From an uncultured Clostridia bacterium (GTDB lineage: Bacteria; Bacillota; Clostridia; Christensenellales; UBA1242): a DNA stretch of 24,000 nucleotides. The notes below the pieces were generated by a model. The model did not search any database. It saw nothing but the letters and a program-made list of their open reading frames with translations, and had not been told where the DNA came from. The stretch lies in the NCBI GenBank assembly GCA_934747965.1, contig CAKVHI010000003.1, positions 14,850 to 38,849 of the forward strand, in the 5' to 3' direction. Positions 26-13,286 of this stretch are shown one piece after another (the stretch's first letter is position 1; each line of letters starts with the position of its first letter). The translations under genes were made by a program, and so were the position numbers.

Positions 26-1312
26 ATGATAGACATAGAATTAATCAGAAAAAATCCTAATCTTGTTAAGGAAAACATTAAAAAGAAATTTCAAGATGAA
101 AAAATTTCACTCGTAGATAGTGTTGCCAAACTTGATAAAGAAAATCGTGAATATAAGCAAAAAATTGATGATTTAAGGGCAATGAGAAAAAATAAAAGTG
201 CTGAAATTGGAAATTTAATGAAAAATAAAGAACTTGACAAAGCAAATGCTTTGAAAGAAGAAGTTTCAAAAATTAACATTAGCATTGAAGAATTTGAAAA
301 TAAACAGGTTGAACTTGAATCACAGATTAAAAACATTATGATGAAAATTCCAAACATAATTGATAGTAGTGTTCCTGTTGGAAAAGATGACAGTGAAAAT
401 GTTGAAAATGAACGCTTTGGCGAAGCTAAAGTCCCAAATTTTGAAATTCCTTATCATGCTGATATTTTGGAAAGTTTTTGTGGTTTAGACAAAGAAAGTG
501 CTGCCAGAACAAGTGGAAATGGCTTTTATTATTTAATGGGAACACCTGCAAGAGTTGTTACTGCAATGATAAATTATGCTCGTGATTACATGATAGACAA
601 AGGCTTTATTTATTGCATACCACCTTTTATGATAAGAAGTGATGTTGTTAATGGTGTTATGAGTTTTGCCGAAATGAATGCAATGATGTATAAAATCGAA
701 GGTGAAGATTTATACTTGATTGGAACAAGTGAACACAGCATGATTGGAAGATTTAAAGACACAATTTTGAAGGAAAGTGAACTTCCTATAAGAATGACAA
801 GTTATAGTCCTTGTTTCAGAAAAGAAGTTGGCGCACATGGCATTGAAGAGCGTGGAATTTATCGTGTGCATCAATTTGAAAAACAAGAAATGATTGTTAT
901 TTGTAAACCCGAAGAAAGTATGGACTTTTACAACAAAATGTGGTCTTACACTGTTGAAATTTTCAGAAACCTAAACATTCCTGTAAGGACCCTTGAGTGT
1001 TGTAGTGGCGACCTTGCCGACCTTAAGGTTAAAAGTTGTGATGTTGAGGCATGGAGCCCAAGACAACAAAAATATTTCGAAGTTGGCTCTTGCTCAACTC
1101 TTGGCGATGCTCAAAGTCGTAGGCTTGGAATTAGAGTTAAAGGTGCAAACGGCAATTATTATCCTCACACACTTAACAACACGGTTTTGGCTTCAACAAG
1201 AGCTTTAATAGCCTTTCTTGAGAACAATCTTAATGCTGATGGCTCAGTTACAATTCCTGAAGTTTTAAGACCATATTTGGGTGGAATGGAAAAAATTGAA
1301 AAGGTTAAGTAA
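26..1312 (+). CDS. serS: Seryl-tRNA synthetase
   Basis: 428 aa ORF with an N-terminal coiled-coil arm and class II aaRS motifs (TSYSPCFRKEVGAHGIEERGIYRVHQFEKQEM; LNNTVLASTRALIAFLENN). Upstream AGAGGTG ribosome-binding site. Confidence 0.97.
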   Translation: MIDIELIRKNPNLVKENIKKKFQDEKISLVDSVAKLDKENREYKQKIDDLRAMRKNKSAEIGNLMKNKELDKANALKEEVSKINISIEEFENKQVELESQIKNIMMKIPNIIDSSVPVGKDDSENVENERFGEAKVPNFEIPYHADILESFCGLDKESAARTSGNGFYYLMGTPARVVTAMINYARDYMIDKGFIYCIPPFMIRSDVVNGVMSFAEMNAMMYKIEGEDLYLIGTSEHSMIGRFKDTILKESELPIRMTSYSPCFRKEVGAHGIEERGIYRVHQFEKQEMIVICKPEESMDFYNKMWSYTVEIFRNLNIPVRTLECCSGDLADLKVKSCDVEAWSPRQQKYFEVGSCSTLGDAQSRRLGIRVKGANGNYYPHTLNNTVLASTRALIAFLENNLNADGSVTIPEVLRPYLGGMEKIEKVK

Positions 1313-2253
1313 TGGACCAATTAAAGAAAGCAATCATAAATGATTTTGTTAAAGTAAAAAATAAAGAAGATGAAAAAAATTTTAATTTAGTATTAAAAAA
1401 ACTAAATGGTTTTTTAACATTATTTTTTAACAAAACAAAGCAAGAATTTGAAAATAAAATTGATTTTAAAGCCAATTTAATTGGTGACATAAGCATAAAA
1501 TCTAATTACGATTTTTTGGACAACGCTACAATTATGATTGATTATTTCGGAAATAGTGATGATTTGACTTACAGTGAAAGTTACAGCAAAAAGTCTGAAA
1601 TAGGAAAGATGTTGCAAGATAGTATGCATCCAACAAAAATAGCAATTCCTACGACTCAAGATTTGATTTCGAATCTTTATTATTACTTATCATTAAACAC
1701 AAAAGATATGTCATTATTTCAACGCAAAAATGGCATATCCTTAAAGTTTTTTGACTTTAAATTCTTCATTTTTTTTACTTTTGCAAGTCAAAACAATAAT
1801 AACCAAGAATTTGAAATTAAGGGTAAATCTTATAATTTTAATTTTGAATTATTGCATAAAAATTTGCTACAAAAAAACAAAGAAACTAAAGGTAAATTCT
1901 TTGATTTGGTCAAATTTTTTAAGATAATTGAGCGAGAGTTATCACTACTTAGCAAATTAAATTTAAACGCCTCAAAAAACCTTTATTTTTATGAAAATTT
2001 ATTATATAGTTTGGATAATAAAATTTTTGAAGGTGAATATATTTATGATATTTTTCTTAAAATCTACGATTATTTATTCAAAGTTTATAAGTATGAAAAT
2101 TTTGACAATTTAAAAAATGCTGAAAATAACCCCTTGTTTTTAGATAAGGAATATAAACTATTCGCAAAATATTATATTACAAAATATGACCTTAAACTTG
2201 TTTTAAAGCAAAGTAAAATTTTTATTGATAACATTGATGAAATTATAAAGTAA
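1312..2253 (+). CDS. Uncharacterised 313 aa protein, translationally coupled to serS
   Basis: Long ORF whose ATG overlaps the serS stop (TAATG). No family recognised with confidence. Confidence 0.75.
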   Translation: MDQLKKAIINDFVKVKNKEDEKNFNLVLKKLNGFLTLFFNKTKQEFENKIDFKANLIGDISIKSNYDFLDNATIMIDYFGNSDDLTYSESYSKKSEIGKMLQDSMHPTKIAIPTTQDLISNLYYYLSLNTKDMSLFQRKNGISLKFFDFKFFIFFTFASQNNNNQEFEIKGKSYNFNFELLHKNLLQKNKETKGKFFDLVKFFKIIERELSLLSKLNLNASKNLYFYENLLYSLDNKIFEGEYIYDIFLKIYDYLFKVYKYENFDNLKNAENNPLFLDKEYKLFAKYYITKYDLKLVLKQSKIFIDNIDEIIK

Positions 2254-3575: not shown

Positions 3576-5501
3576 ATGAAAAGTAGCGTTGTTAGCGGTG
3601 AAAACCGTGGTAGTGTGAATGAAATTTTGTTAAAAGCCCTTCAAAGTGGCGATAAGTATGGTTATGAAATTAATAAAGAAATAGAAATTAAGAGTGCTGG
3701 TAAGTTTTTTTTGAAAGAAGCAAGTTTATATTCTGGATTGAAGCGCTTAGAAGCTGGTGGTTTTATTTCTTCTTATTGGCAAGATGGTGATCTTGGAATT
3801 AGAAGGCATTACTACTCTATAACTCAAAAAGGTCTTAATAAACTTAATGCTTCTAACTTCACTTGGGATAGTTCAAAAGAATTTTTAGGAGAAATGTTTA
3901 AAAATCAAAAATTGGAAGATATAAAAACTAATTTTTCAAATGAAAAAGTTTCTTTAAGCAATTCATCAAATGTTGCACAAGCAGAAAATACTGAAATGAA
4001 AAAAAATCCTTTTCAAATTGAAGTGAGCCCTTTTCAACAAAGTTTTTTTGATTTTAATTCTGAAAATCAAGAAAATAAAAATCAAAATGCTGATAATAAC
4101 AACCAAAACGCTATTAACAACAGCCAATATCTTCAACAAGAACAAATAAACTCAAATGTATGCGAAGAAAAAGTTGAAAGCCAAGTTTCTGAAAATGAAA
4201 ATTTAAAACCAAATGCACAATCTTTTGAACCTAAACAAACAGAAATAGAAAAACAAAAAGAGAATTTTGATGAAAACTTCCTAAATATTGTTAATCAAAA
4301 AGAATTAGATAATAAAGCCGATGAAGTGAACAATAATTTAAGTTATGAAAAACTTATAAACAACTACGAAAATAATAATTACACTACTTCCCTTCAAAAA
4401 GAAAATGTGATTGATATTTCAAATTTGTTTAACTCTAAAATAAATGAATCAAGCATAATTATTAACAAATCAAACGATAATAAGCAAGAAAATGAAGGAA
4501 ATCAAAGTGGCAAAATTTTAGAAAACGATAATAAAAATAATGATGAGATTCTGTCAAACTCTGACATTAAAGCCAAAGAACAAGTTAGCCTAGAAAACAA
4601 AGTTGATGAAAATTCTGGCAGTGATAATTCTGTTGCAAACAAAGAAAATTCGCTTGATTTTAAAAACATTTTTGGCTCACTGCTTGCTGATGAAAATAAA
4701 GAAGAAAAGGTTATTTCTGGGCAAATTGAAAATGATGAAACTTTAGAAAAAAAGGTTGAAGAAACTGTTGAATCTCCAAAGCCTGAACTTCCAAGGATAA
4801 ATGTTGATGATGATGTTAATGTTATGTTAAAAACAGAAAAGAATTTCTATAACAATGATTACTCAAAAAATCAAATTCAAAGCCGAAGTTATCAAGACAA
4901 AATTGTTCAGAGTAACGACAACAGCAAAGGTGTTAAGCAATACATAAACAATGTTCACAAACAAACGTTAATTTCTAGGGCAACAAAAATCACTGAAGAA
5001 GTTAATTTGGAAGGAATAAATATAAGAGAATATTCAAAAATGAATAACAAACTTATTAGAAATTCAAACTATATTTATTCAAACAAACTAAATTTTGTTT
5101 TAGCAATAATTTTGTCGTTGTTAATTGTTACTGAAAGCATTATTTCTTTTGTTGTTCTAAGCAAATTTAACCTACTACAAACTTTTGAAATTGTTATTTT
5201 CACGCTAAGTTTACTTGCAGGATTGTTAATTAGTTTTATTTATTCTTTAAAGTTTTTTAAAGACAAATTTAAGGTTGACACAAAAAAATACAATTTTAAA
5301 ACACAATTATTTTATTTTTGCTTAATTTTTGTTGTAAGTTTTGTTTTGATTTTATGTATAAACATATTTGCAGGCATGAACGTCAATAATTCGTTTGATT
5401 TTAAAATGAAAATTATTATGGAAACATTGATGCTTTCAAATTTTATTGCCTACCCTTTGATTAAATTATTACTTTACAAATCAAAATATTTTTCAAACTA
5501 A
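3576..5501 (+). CDS. PadR-family transcriptional regulator fused to a long Asn/Glu-rich linker and a C-terminal multi-TM membrane domain
   Basis: N-terminal winged helix (YGYEINKEIEIKSAGKFFLKEASLYSGLKRLEAGGFISSYW...GIRRHYYSITQKGLNKL) is PadR-like. A ~380 aa low-complexity linker follows, then about four hydrophobic helices in the last ~150 aa. Confidence 0.85.
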   Translation: MKSSVVSGENRGSVNEILLKALQSGDKYGYEINKEIEIKSAGKFFLKEASLYSGLKRLEAGGFISSYWQDGDLGIRRHYYSITQKGLNKLNASNFTWDSSKEFLGEMFKNQKLEDIKTNFSNEKVSLSNSSNVAQAENTEMKKNPFQIEVSPFQQSFFDFNSENQENKNQNADNNNQNAINNSQYLQQEQINSNVCEEKVESQVSENENLKPNAQSFEPKQTEIEKQKENFDENFLNIVNQKELDNKADEVNNNLSYEKLINNYENNNYTTSLQKENVIDISNLFNSKINESSIIINKSNDNKQENEGNQSGKILENDNKNNDEILSNSDIKAKEQVSLENKVDENSGSDNSVANKENSLDFKNIFGSLLADENKEEKVISGQIENDETLEKKVEETVESPKPELPRINVDDDVNVMLKTEKNFYNNDYSKNQIQSRSYQDKIVQSNDNSKGVKQYINNVHKQTLISRATKITEEVNLEGINIREYSKMNNKLIRNSNYIYSNKLNFVLAIILSLLIVTESIISFVVLSKFNLLQTFEIVIFTLSLLAGLLISFIYSLKFFKDKFKVDTKKYNFKTQLFYFCLIFVVSFVLILCINIFAGMNVNNSFDFKMKIIMETLMLSNFIAYPLIKLLLYKSKYFSN

Positions 5502-5567: not shown

Positions 5568-6515
5568 ATGGAAAAAAAATCAAATTGCGTTTTGTCTGTT
5601 CAAGGTGTTACAAAAATATTTGGAAAAGAAAGAGCGGCAGTAAATAATGTTTCTTTTAACATCTTTGCAGGCGAAATTTATGGCTTGATAGGTCAAAATG
5701 GTGCTGGAAAAACCACTATTATAAGGGTTATTACTGGTCTTGCTAAAGCCACTAGCGGAAAAGTTTTTATTTGTGGTTATGATATTGAAAAAGATTTTCA
5801 AAAAGCAATTAAAAATGTTGGCGGAATAATTGAAAACCCTGAATTATATTCTTACATGAGCGGAATGGATAACCTTAAATATTATGCTTCTCTTTATGGA
5901 AAGGTTGACAAGAATGAAATTGATAAAATAGTTGGCATGCTTGGAATGGAAAATCGAATAAATGACAAGGTTAAAACCTATTCCTTAGGCATGAAGCAAA
6001 GAGTTGGTATCTGCCAAGCCCTACTTCATCATCCTAAGTTGTTGATTTTGGATGAGCCAACAAATGGACTAGACCCAAATGGCATAAAAGATATGCGTAT
6101 GTTTTTAAAAAAACTTGCAAAAGAACAAGGAATTGCAATTTTAATATCAAGTCATATTCTTGCGGAAATGGAATTAATTTGTGATAGAATTGGCATTATT
6201 GACAATGGAATGATTATAGAAAACAAAACAATGGAAGAATTGCAACAGGGCTTAAATTCTAAACTTCAAGTTTCAATAAAAGTTGATTATCCAAATTATG
6301 CTGGAAAAATTTTATTAGATAAATATCCTGATGCTTCTGTGTTCTGCATAGGAAATCGAGTTATTATTGAAACTAAAAATGAGCAAATTCCAATAATTAC
6401 TTCTGTTTTGATAAATAAAGGCATTTCTATTTATGGAATAAGCACAGTAACTAGAAGTTTGGAAGATATATTCCTTGACATCGTACACAAAGGAAAAGAA
6501 CAAAATATTTTATAG
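5568..6515 (+). CDS. ABC transporter ATP-binding protein (BcrA/CcmA-like)
   Basis: Walker A GQNGAGKTT, signature YSLGMKQR, Walker B LLILDEPTNGLDP. RBS AGGAG. Confidence 0.95.
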   Translation: MEKKSNCVLSVQGVTKIFGKERAAVNNVSFNIFAGEIYGLIGQNGAGKTTIIRVITGLAKATSGKVFICGYDIEKDFQKAIKNVGGIIENPELYSYMSGMDNLKYYASLYGKVDKNEIDKIVGMLGMENRINDKVKTYSLGMKQRVGICQALLHHPKLLILDEPTNGLDPNGIKDMRMFLKKLAKEQGIAILISSHILAEMELICDRIGIIDNGMIIENKTMEELQQGLNSKLQVSIKVDYPNYAGKILLDKYPDASVFCIGNRVIIETKNEQIPIITSVLINKGISIYGISTVTRSLEDIFLDIVHKGKEQNIL

Positions 6516-6532
6516 TTTTTAAAGGAAATTTT

Positions 6533-8296
6533 ATGGGAATTTTTAGATTAACCAAAGGCGAATTAAAGAAAGTATTTTTAAAACCGGGCATTTTTGTTGT
6601 AACTGCCCTTCTTGTTGTTGTTCTAACATTATCAGCACTTTTGTTTAAGCCAGCAACTCGTCAAAACAGTGGTTTGGTGAATTTAACAGGCTCTACTGTT
6701 GGACAAATGTATGACCGAAGTTATGGCTCTACAGACACAAAAAATACACTTTCAAAAGATTATATTTCTTCAAATCATATCATTCCGTCCACAAATATTA
6801 TTGATTTTTATTTGAATGAAATAAATAATAACACCAACTCTAAAAAACAAGAATTGTTAGATAAAATCAAAGAGATTAAAACATTTTTTGTTGATTATCA
6901 AAGAAATTCAACAATAAACAATCCTTCGAATGAAATTAAAAATTTGTTAAATGAGCAAAGGGCGGAATTAAAAACAAAAATTACTGAATTTCAAAGTTTG
7001 TATAACAAATATATCAATGGTTTAAATGGTTTTTATTATTTGCTTTTAGAATCAACTACAAAAAATGACATAGATGTTTATTTGTCAAAATGTTTAACTA
7101 CCCCATTTTCTGGCGAAATGCCTCATTCAGAAACGGTTAAAACAATTTATTATGACCTTGATATGTTTAACACTTTAACAAACTATGTTGAACAAATGAA
7201 AACTTTTTTACCCGAAAAACAAGCACTTGAAAATGCAAAAACTAACCTTGAAGATGCAAAAACTAAAATATCTGAAATTGAAACTGATATTCAAAACTTT
7301 AAATCTGAATATTCTTTAAGTGATAAACTTGAGCATAAACAACAATTCAGAACATTAATCACAAGATTTCAACAGGCCAATGAAAATGCCTATAACCTAA
7401 CATTGCACACTATCAACGCTTCTGCATTAAGTGATTTTAGCGATGATTATATTCAATCATTATATCAAAACTTTCAATTCAAAACTAAATATACCATAAA
7501 TGAGCAAAAAAACATTTGTAAATTTTATTTAGATAACAATAAATATGCCTTTGAATATGCAAGCCCATTAAGTTTAAACGCAACAAGCAACACAGAGCCT
7601 AATGTGTATGATTTTATGTTTTTTGCCATTGAATTTTGCAGTTTTATTGTTGTAATATATGTTGTATTTTTAGGTGCAACCATGATTGCTGGAGAATACT
7701 CAAATGGAACAATGAAATTGCTTGCAATAAGACCTTATTCAAGACGCAAAATCTTATTTAGCAAACTTCTTGCTACTATTTTGATTGGCTTAATTTTCTT
7801 GTTTATGTCATTTATTGTAACTTATATCATTGGTGCTATACTTTATTCTACTGCATCCCTTCCAATATTAGTTATCTTTAATGCTGGAAATTGCACAGCA
7901 GTTAGCCCTATTCTTATAATTTTATTACTATTCTTATGCAAAATGGTAGAATTAATTTTTTACGCAATATTTGCTCTTTCTATTTCAACATGGTTTAAAT
8001 CAAATGCTGGATGCATAGTTGTAAGTTTGCTTCTATACTTTATTTCATTTGTTTTAACAATGTTCACCCCAAGTTTGGGAATAATAAAATTCTTACCTTT
8101 TGTCAACACAAATTTATTTGGTTATTTTGGCTCTCATCTTATTTCAACAACATCAAGCAATATATTTGTAACTATGTTCAGCAAAGTTATTGCAAATGAT
8201 ATGAATTTCTTTATTAGCTTTTCAATAATAACTTTCTTCTCTGTTATAATTTATGTTGTTACAAGTGAAATTTTTGCAAAACGAGATATTAAATAA
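6533..8296 (+). CDS. ABC-2 type transporter permease with large extracytoplasmic coiled-coil insert
   Basis: One N-terminal TM, ~330 aa polar/coiled-coil region, then multiple TMs with MIAGEYSNGTMKLLAIRPYSR, typical of ABC-2 permeases. Confidence 0.9.
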   Translation: MGIFRLTKGELKKVFLKPGIFVVTALLVVVLTLSALLFKPATRQNSGLVNLTGSTVGQMYDRSYGSTDTKNTLSKDYISSNHIIPSTNIIDFYLNEINNNTNSKKQELLDKIKEIKTFFVDYQRNSTINNPSNEIKNLLNEQRAELKTKITEFQSLYNKYINGLNGFYYLLLESTTKNDIDVYLSKCLTTPFSGEMPHSETVKTIYYDLDMFNTLTNYVEQMKTFLPEKQALENAKTNLEDAKTKISEIETDIQNFKSEYSLSDKLEHKQQFRTLITRFQQANENAYNLTLHTINASALSDFSDDYIQSLYQNFQFKTKYTINEQKNICKFYLDNNKYAFEYASPLSLNATSNTEPNVYDFMFFAIEFCSFIVVIYVVFLGATMIAGEYSNGTMKLLAIRPYSRRKILFSKLLATILIGLIFLFMSFIVTYIIGAILYSTASLPILVIFNAGNCTAVSPILIILLLFLCKMVELIFYAIFALSISTWFKSNAGCIVVSLLLYFISFVLTMFTPSLGIIKFLPFVNTNLFGYFGSHLISTTSSNIFVTMFSKVIANDMNFFISFSIITFFSVIIYVVTSEIFAKRDIK

Positions 8297-8358: not shown

Positions 8359-9360
8359 TTATTTACACAATTTAACGCCAATCGCATCTTTAACCTTTTC
8401 TAAGGTTTCCTTTGCAACTTTTCTGGCTTTTTCTGCCCCGATTTTAAATATTTCGTCAACTAATTGTCTGTTGGCTTGATAGTAGTCATATTTTTCTCTC
8501 ATAGGAGTTAAAACTTTGTTCATAGCATTAAATAATTCTTTTTTTGCATCCCCCCAACTCATGCCACCTAAAAGTTTGTTGCAATATTCTTCATAACCTT
8601 TTTCATTTGAAAACAATTTAAAAAGTTTGCACAAAGTGTTGTCTGTGTCTTTAGGTTCGCCCGGAAGCCTTGAATCAGTAACAATTTTGTTTACGGTCTT
8701 TTGAAGTTGCTTTTCACTGCAAAACAATTCAATGGTATTTTTATAACTTTTGCTCATTTTTCTGCCGTCTAACCCAACAATTTGACAAGTTTCATCTTCT
8801 ACAACACTTTCAGGAAGAGTAAAGACTTTGCCGTATCTGTTGTTAAAACTGTTAGCTATATCTCGAGCAATCTCAACATGTTGAGTTTGGTCTATTCCAA
8901 CAGGAATTTTCTTTGCGTTAAATAGCAAAATATCAGCTGCCATAAGGATAGGATAATTATACAAGCCCATATTAACACCAATATCTTTATCTTGACCTTC
9001 AGCTTCATTTTTTTCAACAATAGCCTTGTATGCGTGAGCCCTATTCATTAAACCTTTGCTTGTTAAGTTGCACAAAATCCAAAAAAGTTCACAATCTTCA
9101 CTTACATCACTTTGCTTAAAAAAAACAACTTTATTTGGGTCTATTCCACAAGCAAGCCATGTGCAAGCAATGTTATATGTGTTTTCAATCATTTCTTGTT
9201 TGGTTTTTACTGTGGTCAAAGCATGATAATCAGCAATAAAGTAATAACATTCAAAATCATTACTGCTATTTGCAAAATCAACTGCCTGTTTAATTGCACC
9301 AAAATAATTACCAATATGAGCAATACCTGTTGGTTTTATGCCTGTCAAAACTCTCTCCAT
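8359..9360 (-). CDS. trpS: Tryptophanyl-tRNA synthetase
   Basis: 333 aa with GIKPTGIAHIGNYFGAI and GRKMSKSYKNTI (KMSKS motif). Confidence 0.97.
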   Translation of the reverse strand: MERVLTGIKPTGIAHIGNYFGAIKQAVDFANSSNDFECYYFIADYHALTTVKTKQEMIENTYNIACTWLACGIDPNKVVFFKQSDVSEDCELFWILCNLTSKGLMNRAHAYKAIVEKNEAEGQDKDIGVNMGLYNYPILMAADILLFNAKKIPVGIDQTQHVEIARDIANSFNNRYGKVFTLPESVVEDETCQIVGLDGRKMSKSYKNTIELFCSEKQLQKTVNKIVTDSRLPGEPKDTDNTLCKLFKLFSNEKGYEEYCNKLLGGMSWGDAKKELFNAMNKVLTPMREKYDYYQANRQLVDEIFKIGAEKARKVAKETLEKVKDAIGVKLCK

Positions 9361-9444
9361 AATTTCTCCCCATAATTAAAAGCAAAACTAGGCTTTCAAA
9401 ATTTAGATTTGCTTTTTTATTAACAATATATAACTATAAATACA

Positions 9445-9473
9445 ATTATAATTTTATTACACTTTTTTGTCAA
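9445..9473 (-). promoter_or_regulatory. SigA-type promoter of trpS
   Basis: Minus strand TTGACA (9473-9468), 17-nt spacer, TATAAT (9450-9445). Confidence 0.75.
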
Positions 9474-9494
9474 AGAAAAGTTGTTATAATTTTA

Positions 9495-9530
9495 AAAAGC
9501 ATACTTTAAAATATTTTAAAATATGCTTTT
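9495..9530 (-). terminator. Intrinsic terminator downstream of argR
   Basis: Near-perfect 18-bp inverted repeat AAAAGCATATTTTAAAAT/ATTTTAAAGTATGCTTTT (minus sense) running into U residues. Confidence 0.75.
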
Positions 9531-9551
9531 CACTTTATCTGGAATATTAAA

Positions 9552-10001
9552 TTATATAATATTAATCAATTTTTCATAAACACTTTCAGCATCCATATTT
9601 GTTTCTGTGATGCACATAACAGTGTCATCGCCATAAACAGTACCCATAAGATTTTCTATATTCATTTTGTCTATGTAACTTGAAATTCCGCCAGCAAAGC
9701 CTTTAAGAGTTTTTACAACCACAAGGTTTTGAGCAGTTTTTACAGATATAACAACTTCTTTATATATACCCACAACTTTGTTAGAGATTTGTTGCTTTTC
9801 AGTTTCTACATAAGCATATTTATATTTTTTGCTGTCAGACATAATCTTGATTAAACCAAGTTCTTTTATATCTCTTGAAACTGTTGCCTGAGTTACATCA
9901 TAATTTAATGCACGCAAAGCATTCACAAGTTCATCTTGCGTTTCTATTTCATTTTTTGCAATAATTTCTAAAATCTTACTTTGCCTTAAAGACCTAGCCA
10001 T
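9552..10001 (-). CDS. argR: Arginine repressor ArgR
   Basis: MARSLRQSKILEIIAKNEIETQDELVNALRALNYDVTQATVSRDIKELGLIKI. The track starts at 10049, but the AAGGAG RBS supports the ATG at 10001. Confidence 0.93.
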   Translation of the reverse strand: MARSLRQSKILEIIAKNEIETQDELVNALRALNYDVTQATVSRDIKELGLIKIMSDSKKYKYAYVETEKQQISNKVVGIYKEVVISVKTAQNLVVVKTLKGFAGGISSYIDKMNIENLMGTVYGDDTVMCITETNMDAESVYEKLINII

Positions 10002-10040: not shown

Positions 10041-10069
10041 ATTATACAACGCTTTTTATTTTTATGCAA
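10041..10069 (-). promoter_or_regulatory. SigA-type promoter of argR
   Basis: Minus strand TTGCAT (10069-10064), 17-nt spacer, TATAAT (10046-10041). Confidence 0.75.
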
Positions 10070-10075
10070 GTGTTT

Positions 10076-10092
10076 TTGAATATTTATGCAAA
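10076..10092. promoter_or_regulatory. Putative ARG box 2
   Basis: TTGAATATTTATGCAAA. Confidence 0.5.
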
Positions 10093-10130
10093 AAATTTTT
10101 TATATTTATTCAAAAAATTGAATATTGGTT

Positions 10131-10147
10131 GTGAATATTTATACAAA
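10131..10147. promoter_or_regulatory. Putative ARG box 3
   Basis: GTGAATATTTATACAAA. Confidence 0.45.
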
Positions 10148-10295
10148 CACAACATATTGTGTTGTAAAAAGAGTGCATAATACTACATATTGTGATTAAA
10201 ATTTTAAATAAAAAAGAGAATTTTTAAACAAATCCCCTTACATTTATAAATTTATGAATTTTTTTGAAAATTTAAGAACAAAACTTAAGCCAAAA

Positions 10296-10913
10296 TTACT
10301 TTGTTTCACCATTATTTTCTTTTTTGTCTTTGTCTTTCTTTTTAGATTTATCAGATTTTTTTATTTTAAAGAAACTTAAAAATTTTCCTACCCTTAAAAT
10401 TATTTGGTCAGAATTGTTTACCGCTACCCCCTTAAAAATTGCCTTTCCAAAAACGGTTAGCGAGGTAACAACACTGCTGACAAGCGCAGGAATTAATATT
10501 GCCAAAAATCCACTTTCACCTGAATAAATAAAAACTGCCAAACTAGCACCAACAGCACCCGATAATATTCCACAACTATCGCCAACTATATCGCAACAAA
10601 AACTCGAGATTTTTTCTGCATTTTTTATTAATTTTATACTTTCCTTTGCACCATTTTCTTTTTTTGAAGCCCTTGCCAAAAATGGCTCAATGTTTCCAGC
10701 GGTAACTGCAACACCTATCATATCAAACAAAATTGATATCCCGACAAAAACAATCAAAATTAAAATAGAAATAATAAGTCCAACACCAGAAAGCACTGCC
10801 TCACTTGAAATGTTAAGCACCAAACTTAATGAAAGTGTTATCAGCAACACCCTAATTGGATAAGCCCATGCAATTTTGGTTTTTTTCGGCTTAGATTCTT
10901 TTTCTTCTTTCAT
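10296..10913 (-). CDS. oapA: OLE-associated membrane protein OapA-like
   Basis: 205 aa, ~4 hydrophobic segments. Central region FDMIGVAVTAGNIEPFLARASKKENGAKESIKLIKNAEKISSFCCDIVGDSCGILSGA and highly charged C-terminus. Immediately downstream of the structured noncoding gap after xseB, the known OLE/OapA position. Confidence 0.82.
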   Translation of the reverse strand: MKEEKESKPKKTKIAWAYPIRVLLITLSLSLVLNISSEAVLSGVGLIISILILIVFVGISILFDMIGVAVTAGNIEPFLARASKKENGAKESIKLIKNAEKISSFCCDIVGDSCGILSGAVGASLAVFIYSGESGFLAILIPALVSSVVTSLTVFGKAIFKGVAVNNSDQIILRVGKFLSFFKIKKSDKSKKKDKDKKENNGETK

Positions 10914-10952
10914 TTCCTTTCGACCTTTTTATTTTAGATAAATTATTAATAT

Positions 10953-11481
10953 AAAAAAAATTAGAGAAAATCTTTTGAGTAAACCTTGCAACTTAGGTTC
11001 GGTTGGATTTCCCCACTAAACACACACCGTCGCCGAATGTGTCATTTCTGCTTTGGTTTAGCGCCATAAGGTACCGAATTGCCACTTAGATTACACTATA
11101 ATCCCCAAAAGATATTCTGCCTAGAAGATTTCCTTAACACAAAAATTGTTTAACTAGTCTATTTTGCAAACAATGTTTCAAACATTATGTATTATCCGCA
11201 ATTATTCACTCAAAACAGGCTACTCTGTACATAGCTTTTTGTTCGCCACATAGCAGGTTTAATCCCGATTAGTAGTTAATTTGTCATTATCCACCTTTCA
11301 GGTCTCCACGATAATTGGGTCGGGTATTATATGCCGTTATAATGCGCCCAAAAATCTTAACTTCCAGCATCTGCCCCAGTTTGGGCAACCAAAGCAAACA
11401 CCAGAAACTTCATCGATATGCCCTTCAACGCTATTAATCGTTTTCATTAAAGTTTTTGCGACTAGGATACAGTTTCTCTAA
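10953..11481 (-). ncRNA. ole: OLE RNA (ornate large extremophilic RNA), compact ~530-nt representative
   Basis: Minus-strand promoter just upstream. Complementary termini (TTAGAGAAA at 11481-11473 with TTTCTCTAA at 10969-10961) followed by U8. ~12-bp long-range helix 11398-11387/11058-11047 and several hairpins. Synteny xseB-[RNA]-oapA. No database match run. Confidence 0.83.
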
Positions 11482-11488
11482 CAACATA

Positions 11489-11517
11489 ATTATATCATAT
11501 ACAATATTTTTATGCAA
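11489..11517 (-). promoter_or_regulatory. SigA-type promoter dedicated to the OLE-like RNA
   Basis: Minus strand TTGCAT (11517-11512), exactly 17-nt spacer, TATAAT (11494-11489), located right after the xseB stop. Confidence 0.85.
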
Positions 11518-11529
11518 GAGGTTTCTAAA

Positions 11530-11736
11530 TTATTTGTTTTCATCAAAATTAATTTGATTTAGATCCTCAGTTATTTCAATAATCTTACCATCGCATTTTT
11601 TAATAGATTCATAACAATCTTTTATAATCTTTCCAGCCTCTTCATACTTTTCAACGCTTCGTTCTAAGCCTGTGCTTGAATTTTCAATTTCATTAAGAAT
11701 TTTTTCTAATCTCTCCAAATTTTCTTCAATCGTCAT
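11530..11736 (-). CDS. xseB: Exodeoxyribonuclease VII small subunit
   Basis: MTIEENLERLEKILNEIENSSTGLERSVEKYEEAGKIIKDCYESI. GGAGG RBS supports the ATG at 11736 rather than the track start 11799. Confidence 0.93.
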   Translation of the reverse strand: MTIEENLERLEKILNEIENSSTGLERSVEKYEEAGKIIKDCYESIKKCDGKIIEITEDLNQINFDENK

Positions 11737-12904
11737 CTTGTTTAACCTCCAAAATTTTTGCACAAAAACTTCCGCCATTAAGATAAATTTTAATCTCATC
11801 CCCAGCCAAAACTTTGCCTATATTTTCAACTCTTTCCCCGTCTTTTTCAACCACAGCAAAGCCTAAGTCTTTATACAACAAAGGATTTAACATTTCTTGC
11901 CTTCTTGCATAATCTTTTATAAAATTTTTAAGTGCTTCTTCTTTTTTTTGCAAACAAATTTTAAAATTATTCTTTAAACTTTCAAGTTTAACAACGTCAT
12001 TATTTCTTTTAACAATCAAACTTCTGTTATCTTTTATTTTAAATTTTAAGCAGTTTAAGCAATTATCTTTTTTTGCCATGACCGCTTTATAAATTTGACT
12101 GTAGTAAAAATTCAACAAAGACTCATAATTTTTGCTTTCTTTAACCGCAATTTCCGCCGCAACAGAAGGCGTTGACGCCCTAACATCTGCAACCAAATCA
12201 ATCAACGTATAGTCAGTTTCATGCCCTACAGCCGAAATAATTGGCTTTTCACACTCAAAACAAGCCTTGGCAACAGTTTCGCTGTTAAAAACATTCAAAT
12301 CTTCACTGCTTCCCCCGCCACGAGCAACAATAATAACATCAACTTCTTCAAAATTCGCGAAAAAATTTATACCTTTACAAATTTCTTTTTCAGCATTTTC
12401 CCCTTGCACTTTTGAAGGAAAAACATAAATATTTACATTAGGATTTCGCCTTTTTGAAACCGAGATAATATCCCTTATCACAGCACCCTTATTTGAAGTT
12501 ACAACACCAATGCTTTTAACAATTTTGGGAAGTTCTTTTTTATTCAAAAAATAGCCTTCACTAGCTAGTTTTTCCTTTAACTCACAAAATCGTTTGTAAA
12601 TATCCCCGTTTCCAAAACTTAATATATAAGTTACATTAAAATTAAGTTTTCCACCTTTAACATAATAATTTGGCTTTCCTACAACTTTAACCTTTTCGCC
12701 AATTTTATAATCTTTGTCAGGGCTAAACCACACACAATTTAAACTTGCGAATTCATCTTTAATAACAAAATATGCAACATTACCAGTAATCTTAAAACTT
12801 GAAATTTCTCCAACAACAGCACAGTTATAAAGCATTTCTTCACAATCTAAAATGTTTTTTATAATGTTGTTAAATTCGACCACACTTAAATTATTAAACT
12901 GCAT
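11726..12904 (-). CDS. xseA: Exodeoxyribonuclease VII large subunit
   Basis: OB-fold N-terminus plus VIIVARGGGSSEDLNVFNSETVAKACFECEKPIISAVGHETDYTLIDLVADVRASTPSVAAE. Confidence 0.97.
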   Translation of the reverse strand: MQFNNLSVVEFNNIIKNILDCEEMLYNCAVVGEISSFKITGNVAYFVIKDEFASLNCVWFSPDKDYKIGEKVKVVGKPNYYVKGGKLNFNVTYILSFGNGDIYKRFCELKEKLASEGYFLNKKELPKIVKSIGVVTSNKGAVIRDIISVSKRRNPNVNIYVFPSKVQGENAEKEICKGINFFANFEEVDVIIVARGGGSSEDLNVFNSETVAKACFECEKPIISAVGHETDYTLIDLVADVRASTPSVAAEIAVKESKNYESLLNFYYSQIYKAVMAKKDNCLNCLKFKIKDNRSLIVKRNNDVVKLESLKNNFKICLQKKEEALKNFIKDYARRQEMLNPLLYKDLGFAVVEKDGERVENIGKVLAGDEIKIYLNGGSFCAKILEVKQDDD

Positions 12905-13286
12905 CTATCACCTTTGCAAGCAAGCCATTCACAAATTTGTAACTATTATCTAAAGAGTACTTTTTGCTTAAATCAACTGCCTCATTAACAACAATTTTTA
13001 CAGGCTCAGACAGAAATTTTAGTTGATATATTGCCGTTATCAAAATAGCCAAGTCTGTTTTGCAAATCCTGTCCAATTTATAATTAACCAAATTTTTTTC
13101 AACAATTTCAACAATTTCATCATAATGAAGTTTAATACCTTCAAAATTTTGGTTTATATATTCTTTATCTTCTTCGCTTAGATTTTTGTCTTCTAAAAAT
13201 TCATCTTCATCAAAATCACAATTCTTTTCAAAATTATAAGAAAAAACCATTTGCATAAGATTTTCTCTTGCCGAAATTCTACTCAT
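12894..13286 (-). CDS. nusB: Transcription antitermination factor NusB
   Basis: 130 aa; SRISARENLMQMVFSYNFE...ILITAIYQLKFLSEPVKIVVNEAVDLSKKYSLDNSYKFVNGLLAKV. Confidence 0.96.
   Translation of the reverse strand: MSRISARENLMQMVFSYNFEKNCDFDEDEFLEDKNLSEEDKEYINQNFEGIKLHYDEIVEIVEKNLVNYKLDRICKTDLAILITAIYQLKFLSEPVKIVVNEAVDLSKKYSLDNSYKFVNGLLAKVIDAV

Follow-up and report, generated by a model that had tools for sequence, protein, structure and literature searches.

A compact OLE RNA gene paired with oapA in an uncultured gut Clostridia bacterium, and close relatives with oapA but no adjacent ole

Introduction

In H. halodurans, the ribonucleoprotein built on OLE RNA influences how well cells tolerate alcohol, cold, an excess of Mg2+ and poor carbon sources (PMC12265935, PMC12286853, PMC11332333). 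The distribution of this RNA was surveyed in 2024 by Fernando and Breaker, who obtained 2,822 OLE hits from Bacillota in a GTDB search and divided them by bit score (PMC11332333). Full-length OLE RNAs, the predominant form, score at least 390 bits. Variant 1 (310-390 bits), found mostly in TANB77, has shorter P7, P8 and P9 stems and has often lost the OapB site at the tip of P13, and variant 2 (235-310 bits), found mostly in RF39, is without P7 and P8; both come from uncultured gut lineages with reduced genomes (PMC11332333). According to Lyon and Breaker, P7 and P8 make no dimer contacts and may be lost, while the long P9 arch is treated as conserved, its extra function being unknown (PMC12265935). 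The present analysis concerns an OLE RNA gene (ole) and the adjacent gene oapA in a 24,000-nucleotide (nt) stretch of DNA, hereafter the window, from an uncultured Clostridia bacterium (assembly GCA_934747965.1, contig CAKVHI010000003.1, positions 14,850 to 38,849, forward strand).

The gap between xseB and oapA in the window is very probably a functional OLE RNA gene, of a compact form that resembles variant 1 and is paired with oapA. It belongs to a known RNA class of which shortened gut forms have already been published, and is in that respect an ordinary find. One lineage nested within the clade of compact OLE RNAs appears from its alignments to have cleanly deleted ole and kept a conserved oapA, an observation that may be worth more than the OLE RNA of the window itself.

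Identification of the OLE RNA gene

The minus-strand genes around xseB are tightly packed except for 616 nt between the xseB stop (11530) and the oapA start (10913). The only open reading frames (ORFs) of at least 40 amino acids (aa) inside this gap encode 66 and 40 aa, both on the plus strand, in agreement with the first-pass annotation, which had described about 530 nt of non-coding sequence, had recognised OLE RNA in it and had proposed the Rfam covariance model on the minus strand as a check. This model gave the single Rfam hit of the whole window (cmscan): OLE (RF01071), 11494..10948 on the minus strand, 332.2 bits, E 2.4e-94, for a gathering score of 50. The match covers model positions 1-616 of 616 and is not truncated. 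Scanning all 24 kb revealed no other Rfam family and no tRNA gene. The narrower limits proposed earlier, 10953-11481, also hold, as 11481 is the first base of P1 and the U-run behind the 3′ strand of P1 ends at 10953; the core of the transcript likely extends over 10953-11482, or about 530 nt.

Sequence conservation is high, with 197 of the 241 strongly conserved (upper-case) Rfam consensus positions identical in the window (82%). All the conserved junction motifs named for OLE are present in the cmscan alignment and in an alignment of relatives (A2, below), and the stretch folds more stably than its shuffled versions (z -2.79, 0 of 100 shuffles as stable). Its GC content is 0.35-0.37, against about 0.20-0.24 in the spacer between oapA and argR.

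Base pairing was counted on A2, which contains 12 sequences (10 distinct compact-clade sequences plus the loci L107 and L015). The pairs were those of Rfam in the cmscan alignment, together with the long-range helices P1, P2, P3 and P3.1, which carry no Rfam annotation. The 160 modelled pairs in 23 helices are 91.6% paired across the 12 sequences, against 41-44% after the 3′ partners are shifted by 1-3 columns. Changes on both sides were found in 65 of the 160 pairs, and none of 500 column shuffles reached the observed values. All four of P1, P2, P3 and P3.1 hold, and compensatory changes occur in P1, P3, P3.1 and the outer segment of P2. A2 being dominated by one clade (10 of 12 sequences are close relatives), the depth of covariation is modest, but the outcome is clear. 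As read from these alignments, the base pairing of the window OLE is maintained by compensatory changes in relatives.

Anatomy of the window RNA

The window RNA has the published OLE architecture, in which the molecule is closed by P1, domain 1 (P4-P9) is reached through P2 and P3/P3.1, and P10 together with P12-P15 makes up domain 2 (Table 1; RNA position n corresponds to window coordinate 11495-n). P1 is a perfect 9-bp complement, found in both the minimum-free-energy and the centroid folds, and is 96% paired in relatives with compensatory changes; it is a covariant version of the Rfam consensus GUGGUG/CACCAC. P2 (helices 2-3) is 100% paired, with one pair, in its outer segment, changed on both sides, and contains a CUAG palindrome. 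In the published system, one OapA-binding palindrome lies in or near P2 (PMC12265935). P3 and P3.1 (helices 4-5) are 91-96% paired with both-sided changes in 10 of 14 pairs. These 14 bp correspond to the P3/P3.1 helix of roughly 12 bp, which was proposed by Lyon and Breaker to cross the membrane (PMC12265935).

In domain 1, a second palindrome, AUCGAU, lies in the P4a region within the conserved AAGGGCAUAUCGAUGAAG and matches the Rfam consensus. It is a candidate OapA site, since P4a is where such a site was located in H. halodurans (PMC12265935). P5/P5.1 comprises 20 pairs (98.8% paired), and both its GCCCA loop and the GGCAU of the P6.1 loop are invariant in A2. The GCCCA of L5.1 can pair with the GGC in the loop of P6.1, a contact that is one of the published dimer bridges. 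In the second domain, P13 is intact, with 4 of its 8 pairs changed on both sides and a loop that is GNRA throughout the relatives (GCGA, GUGA or GCAA). The small P11 hairpin is reduced or absent and the short hairpin after AAUUCGGUA is reduced.

The loop of P4 forms an A-A dimer bridge in the structures obtained by cryo-electron microscopy (PMC12286853, PMC12265935). In the window it reads AUUAAUAG, which is A-rich and departs from the canonical CUAAAAAU. The loop is CUAAAAAU in most OLE RNAs and variable in the Christensenellales-like group (AUUAAUAG, AAUAAUGG, AUACAAAAAG, AAGUAAUAG and others), which raises the question of whether this bridge, B1, is kept in the OLE RNAs of that group.

The compact form and its relation to published variants

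With the Rfam boundaries, the window RNA measures 547 nt, shorter, as had been stated earlier, than the 616-position model and than the OLE RNAs of 13 ordinary relatives (578-668 nt, 355-466 bits). Alignment with other OLE RNAs, also proposed in the first-pass annotation, identified the lost parts. Relative to the Rfam model (cmscan), about 39 nt of the outer P9 arm, the small P11 hairpin, 13 nt of the small 3′-domain hairpin (15 nt in the model, 2 nt in the window) and about 5 nt of the P7 tip are missing. The absence of the outer part of P9 is the main cause of the short length. The P9 insert, with its GGCC loop, is kept in L107 and L015 and is missing in all 10 distinct compact-clade sequences of A2. 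Among the 73 OLE RNAs with recognisable anchors, the distance from GUAGCCU to GCAAAA, taken as the P9 span, is 47-58 nt for the compact clade versus 73-214 nt for the other 61, most of which contain an L9.3-type palindrome. L9.3 (GGCC, GAUC or AGCU) is the symmetric kissing loop of dimer bridge B3 in the cryo-electron microscopy structures (PMC12286853, PMC12265935). By these alignments, the compact clade shows that the long P9 arch can also be lost.

The compact form is not restricted to the window. Compact OLE RNAs of 530-552 nt, in the same xseB-OLE-oapA-argR order, were found in nine distinct related loci besides the window, and the clade (window, L099, L101, L081, L106, L104, L102, L097 and L103) scores 309-344 bits. 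Smaller, lower-scoring and variant-2-like forms of 487-540 nt (235-282 bits) occur in L096 (487 nt, 247 bits), L079 (499 nt, 235 bits), L088 (501 nt, 237 bits) and L030 (540 nt, 282 bits). The window OLE is thus a clade-level compact form, neither the smallest known nor a minimal core. The earlier suggestion that it would help to define such a core fails on this point, given the OLE RNAs of 487-501 nt among the comparison loci and the shortened variants published in 2024.

With full-length OLE (RF01071; about 600 nt in H. halodurans and 577 nt in Clostridium acetobutylicum), the window RNA shares the P1-to-P15 architecture, the junction sequences AAGGGCAnAUCGAUGAAG, GUUAAG, CGUGGAGACC, GGAUUAAACCUG, GUAGCCUG, GCAAAA, GGGGAUUAnAGUG, CUAAGUGGCAAU, GGGAAAUCC and ACCUAAG, the L5.1 and L6.1 loops, the GNRA loop of P13, a proximal promoter of its own and an oapA gene immediately downstream. 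It differs in being about 50-120 nt shorter, in having lost the outer P9 arm (about 39 nt) with its palindromic L9.3, in the absence of P11, in its L4 (AUUAAUAG instead of CUAAAAAU) and in a neighbourhood without folD, ispA and dxs.

The score of 332.2 bits falls within the 310-390 band of variant 1, although it was obtained with the Rfam model and the band was defined with a different covariance model. Like variant 1, the window RNA is a shortened OLE of an uncultured gut Clostridia, with P9 and P7 shorter by about 39 and 5 nt. In contrast to variant 1, its P8 is of full length and its P13 tip, the OapB site, is intact and covarying with a GCGA tetraloop. Variant 1 occurs mostly in the TANB77 gut clade; the host here is named Clostridia/Christensenellales in NCBI records. 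Variant 2 is likewise a reduced OLE of reduced-genome gut bacteria with oapA downstream; unlike it, the window RNA keeps P7 and P8.

Two candidate kissing loops were considered and rejected. L4 (AUUAAU) could have acted as a self-complementary loop replacing the A-A bridge, but most clade members have AAUAAU, which is not palindromic. As for the truncated P9 loop, its sequence varies within the clade and includes none of twelve screened 4-nt palindromes.

The partner protein OapA

The gene that follows ole encodes a protein of 205 aa, which the first-pass annotation had rightly described as an OapA-like multi-transmembrane protein of about 22 kDa. Published OapA proteins have four predicted transmembrane helices and a DxxxD motif, belong to the next-best class of PF01595 matches after MpfA, and resemble CorB (7M1U) (PMC11332333, PMC12265935); the DxxxD motif is distinctive for OapA (PMC11332333). 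Further traits of OapA are clusters of basic residues on the cytoplasmic face, the lack of the proline that true CNNM domains conserve, and binding to OLE RNA. The only Pfam hit of the window protein is CNNM (PF01595), just significant at 30 bits for a cut-off of 28.4. A CBS pair and a CorC/HlyC domain were not found by Pfam, no NCBIfam model names the protein, and a sequence search of the PDB returned no match. The DxxxD motif is present as DIVGD (D108-D112), both aspartates of which are invariant in 38 homologs. The AlphaFold model (mean pLDDT 78) contains four long helices, at residues 17-43, 46-72, 99-129 and 136-166, and hydropathy peaks at residues ~17-41, 29-75 and 123-157. The top Foldseek hits in the PDB are structures of the archaeal CNNM protein MtCorB (7M1T/7M1U; TM-score 0.54, root-mean-square deviation 3.0 Å, 138 aligned columns). 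Basic residues are clustered in the sequence, with 6 lysines and arginines among residues 1-20, 7 within the loop 75-105 and another 13 towards the C-terminal end, in the tail.

Hence, judging from its sequence and predicted fold, the product of 10296-10913 is an OapA homolog with the published hallmarks. Its weak CNNM match and CorB-like predicted fold, nearest to the transmembrane domain of MtCorB, recall the CNNM/CorB/MpfA Mg2+ transporters and agree with what was published for OapA of H. halodurans. It differs from these transporters by the absence of the CBS pair and of CorC/HlyC, by the OapA-specific DxxxD and by its length of only 205 aa. The pairing with ole is general, as OLE lies directly upstream of an OapA homolog in about 90 of 107 comparison loci (nhmmer), and most of the loci without a hit end too early upstream.

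Transcription signals

B. halodurans OLE is transcribed from its own active proximal promoter, which increases expression by a factor of more than 100, with the 5′ ends of the RNA mapped to the start of P1 (PMC3413148). The window ole mirrors this arrangement. An alignment of the sequences upstream of OLE from 11 loci (A3: 9 compact-clade loci, L107 and L015) revealed a putative promoter in the xseB-ole spacer, conserved and sigma-A-type with an extended -10. The -35 element is nearly invariant in the 9 compact-clade loci and TTGACA-like in L107 and L015. TGnTATAAT is kept in 9 of 9 compact-clade loci and in L107, and L015 reads TGTTATTAT. Transcription should start near 11482, 1-2 nt before P1, as predicted from the position of these boxes. 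A generic promoter and terminator scan missed this promoter because TTGCAT matches TTGACA at only 3 of 6 positions; the same scan called no separate oapA promoter and no canonical GC-rich terminator.

The U-run after P1 is shared by all compact-clade loci and can be seen in the Rfam consensus. In the window it is a run of eight U residues, which may possibly mark the 3′ end of the RNA or act as a weak terminator. Since oapA starts 34 nt past the OLE match, read-through would likely lead to the co-transcription of ole and oapA.

Relatives that keep oapA without an adjacent ole

An OapA 66-68% identical to that of the window is encoded by the P0028 contigs, which were recovered from three independent samples and contain no OLE (L108-L110; also L105). 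The absence applies to the 20.6 kb of contig in which Rfam detected none. These contigs keep DHH, truB, efp, spoIIIA, asp23, nusB, xseA, xseB, oapA, argR, recN, spoIVB and spo0A. The distance from xseB to oapA is reduced to 28 nt (in L108, xseB ends at 9972 and oapA starts at 10001).

In a neighbour-joining tree of XseB, OapA and ArgR, the L108 lineage pairs with L104 in 200 of 200 bootstrap replicates. The supports used from this tree are those of L104 with L108 (100%) and of the window with L099, L081 and L101 (98%), the deep nodes not being meaningful owing to a rooting mismatch. L104 has an OLE of 530 nt, and its OapA is 76% identical to that of the L108 lineage. Alignment of L104 with L108 places the deletion from the promoter spacer to the ATG of oapA, with the -10 box included and no obvious ribosome-binding site left.

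L033, from a metagenome-assembled genome (MAG) of Lachnospiraceae (OapA 44% identical, full upstream flank), is a second locus that has oapA and no ole beside it; neither Rfam nor nhmmer detected OLE within its 12.5 kb.

The loci can be arranged as a reduction series in one gut Clostridia lineage, from a full P9 (L107, L015), through loss of the P9 arm with the other conserved elements kept (window clade), to loss of ole with oapA retained (L108-L110). Such a series is conceivable, yet on balance somewhat doubtful.

Proposed function and alternative explanations

By homology with the OLE RNAs of H. halodurans and Clostridium, the window RNA would be made from its own promoter and would fold into domains 1 and 2 joined by P3/P3.1. 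OapA, with its four-helix CNNM/CorB-like predicted fold and DxxxD motif, would bind the RNA at the palindromes near P2 and P4a. By analogy, OLE would then be held at the membrane, where it probably dimerises, and may serve as the scaffold of a ribonucleoprotein that responds to stress (Mg2+, alcohol, cold, carbon source).

Several observations weigh against this reading. All of it that goes beyond the conservation of sequence and structure comes by transfer from H. halodurans and two Clostridium species. One lineage within the clade has oapA and no adjacent ole, so that at least one close relative would be able to dispense with the RNA. Finally, L4 departs from the conserved sequence of the A-A bridge and bridge B3 is absent. 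Because B3 was lost with the outer P9 arm, any dimer must rest on L4 and on the GCC/GGC contacts between L5.1 and L6.1, and dimerisation in the compact clade, argued by analogy, is uncertain.

The same facts could be taken to mean that the window RNA is a non-functional relic, which is losing the P9 arm, P11 and small hairpins on its way to complete loss: the OLE RNAs of the clade are the shortest of the sampled forms that contain P7 and P8, and the sister lineage of L104 removed ole entirely. Decay of this kind is highly improbable, given that 82% of the conserved positions are kept, that 65 pairs have both-sided changes in and around the clade, and that the promoter, the GNRA loop of P13 and every junction motif are preserved. 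Moreover, the deletions affect only the tips of peripheral hairpins and are common to 10 of 10 distinct clade sequences, which argues for long-term retention after the truncation.

Two further explanations concern what the gap encodes. The RNA could act mainly in cis, as a long structured 5′ leader of oapA and not as a stable scaffold acting in trans, since both genes are on the same strand, 34 nt apart and almost always adjacent, with no canonical terminator between them and no separate oapA promoter called. Such a role taken alone is very improbable, because an RNA of 530 nt and about 25 helices far exceeds the known leaders, P1 is followed by a U8 run here and by a similar U-run across the clade, and H. 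halodurans OLE is a single, very stable and abundant RNA that forms a membrane ribonucleoprotein with OapA (PMC3413148, PMC12265935). The cis-leader and ribonucleoprotein roles are not mutually exclusive. That the gap encodes small proteins and matches the RNA model incidentally is close to inconceivable: the 66-aa and 40-aa plus-strand ORFs exist, but they are antisense to the operon, the longer one begins with TTG, substitutions in relatives track base pairing and not codons, and a covariance-model E of 2e-94 cannot be chance. A functional compact OLE RNA paired with oapA is therefore the explanation retained here.

Gene neighbourhood and host

Coordinates of the RNA, its signals and the neighbouring genes are collected in Table 1.

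Table 1. Features of the ole-oapA locus (window coordinates)
Feature	Position	Strand	Details
trpS	8359-9360	-	Pfam/NCBIfam
argR	9552..10001	-	Pfam Arg_repressor N and C domains, TIGR01529; downstream context gene
oapA	10296..10913	-	205 aa, 21.9 kDa; 34 nt downstream of OLE match
OLE RNA gene	10948..11494	-	RF01071; Rfam boundaries, 547 nt
U8 run	10953..10960	-	directly after P1 3′ strand
P1 3′ strand	10961..10969	-	UUUCUCUAA; partner of 11473..11481; closes whole RNA
3′ domain (P12-P15 region)	10970..11113	-	cmscan; helices 17-23, 89-100% paired
P13 hairpin	11022-11042	-	intact; GNRA loop GCGA at 11030-11033
P10 hairpin	11125..11135	-	AAG-GAAAU-CUU; helix 16; invariant, 100% paired
P9, truncated	11157..11216	-	4-bp stem and CAUAA loop; cmscan: 5 nt where model has 44 (P9.2/P9.3 with palindromic kissing loop)
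P8 hairpin	11225..11256	-	helix 12; not shortened
P7 hairpin	11264..11302	-	helices 10-11; 39 nt vs 44 in model, tip variable
P6/P6.1 hairpin	11310..11356	-	loop AACGGCAU; helices 8-9
P5/P5.1 hairpin	11361..11407	-	loop GCCCA; helix 7
AUCGAU palindrome	11412..11417	-	P4a region, within AAGGGCAUAUCGAUGAAG; candidate OapA site
P4 hairpin	11427..11442	-	loop AUUAAUAG (L4); cmscan alignment and helix 6
P3 and P3.1 5′ strand	11446..11460	-	pairs with 11138-11154; 8 + 6 = 14 bp; P3 = RNA 35-42/350-357, P3.1 = RNA 44-49/341-346
P2 5′ strand	11462..11472	-	CUAG palindrome; pairs with 11117-11124; RNA 23-26/375-378 and 30-33/371-374
P1 5′ strand	11473..11481	-	UUAGAGAAA; pairs with 10961-10969 UUUCUCUAA; RNA 14-22/526-534
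Extended -10	11489..11497	-	TGaTATAAT; TG 11497-11496, TATAAT 11494-11489; 17 nt after -35
-35 element	11512..11517	-	TTGCAT
66-aa ORF	11281-11481	+	TTG start
40-aa ORF	11315-11437	+	ORF list
xseB	11530..11745	-	Pfam Exonuc_VII_S and TIGR01280; upstream context gene
xseA	11726-12904	-	Pfam/NCBIfam
nusB	12894-13286	-	Pfam/NCBIfam

By Pfam and NCBIfam, the order of the minus strand is infB, rbfA, a DHH phosphoesterase, truB, an AP-endonuclease-2-fold protein and efp, followed by spoIIIAA to spoIIIAH, asp23, nusB, xseA, xseB, OLE, oapA, argR and trpS. Between nusB and argR there is no folD, ispA or dxs. The streamlined nusB/xseA/xseB...argR neighbourhood described earlier is confirmed by this order, and the spoIIIAA-AH operon upstream of nusB-xseA-xseB fits a sporulating host. 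The start of argR was set by comparison with relatives (149-aa form, MARSLRQ N-terminus). L081, whose OapA is 86% identical to that of the window, has an identical order from spoIIIA to trpS (exact-protein look-up).

The related loci among the matches listed are gut MAGs named Clostridia, Christensenellales or Christensenella. The host of the compact OLE is an uncultured spore-forming gut bacterium of the Clostridia (Christensenellales-like), and the gut habitat of the related loci suggests that it is anaerobic. Among the matches listed in a scan of genome contigs, which do not include the window's own species, the best OapA is 70% identical. A metagenome scan with a single OapA query returned 15 loci, mostly distant; the close relatives came from exact-protein look-ups.

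The oapA-argR spacer (10049-10296, 247 nt) is AT-rich (GC about 0.20), with no terminator called and one weak promoter-like site (10228-10201, minus strand). Unpublished evidence for the binding of ArgR to OLE RNA was mentioned by the Breaker laboratory (PMC12054373, PMC12265935). Downstream of argR, recN is found in L102-L104, L106 and L108. The longer flank of L108 continues after recN with spoIVB, spo0A, a 207-aa gene and a PBP5-type carboxypeptidase, then an ABC-2 transporter/PadR block. In the window and L081, the recN-to-carboxypeptidase block of about 5.7 kb is missing after argR, with trpS in its place, and in L097 argR directly abuts the transporter. The comparison of window 8359-10001 with L102-L108 suggests a hot spot of rearrangement just after argR.

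On the plus strand, a 641-aa protein (3576-5501) has an N-terminal PadR domain and about 550 C-terminal aa without a Pfam match. It is followed by an ABC ATPase and a 587-aa ABC-2 permease (5568-8296), and this trio is kept beside the ole neighbourhood in L081, L097 and L108. Directly after serS, a 313-aa ORF (1312-2253, plus strand) has no Pfam family at E <= 0.001.

Significance for OLE biology

For annotation, the 616-nt "empty" spacer becomes ole and the hypothetical membrane protein downstream becomes oapA. The locus adds little to the OLE field, since publications already cover the class and its gene neighbourhood, its shortened variants and the fact that it occurs in anaerobes that are not extremophilic. 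The importance that the first-pass annotation attached to a host that is not obviously extremophilic was overstated, OLE being well documented in non-extremophilic anaerobes and gut metagenome lineages. The comparative value is modest: ten distinct sequences indicate that the outer P9 arm and its kissing loop are removable, with the other conserved elements still under selection.

If the reduction series is true and has not already been catalogued, it would mean that the P9 arch is dispensable, that dimers either persist with two bridges or are not needed, and that OapA can have a role independent of ole. The nested lineage that lacks ole and keeps oapA would offer a natural control for the role of OapA alone.

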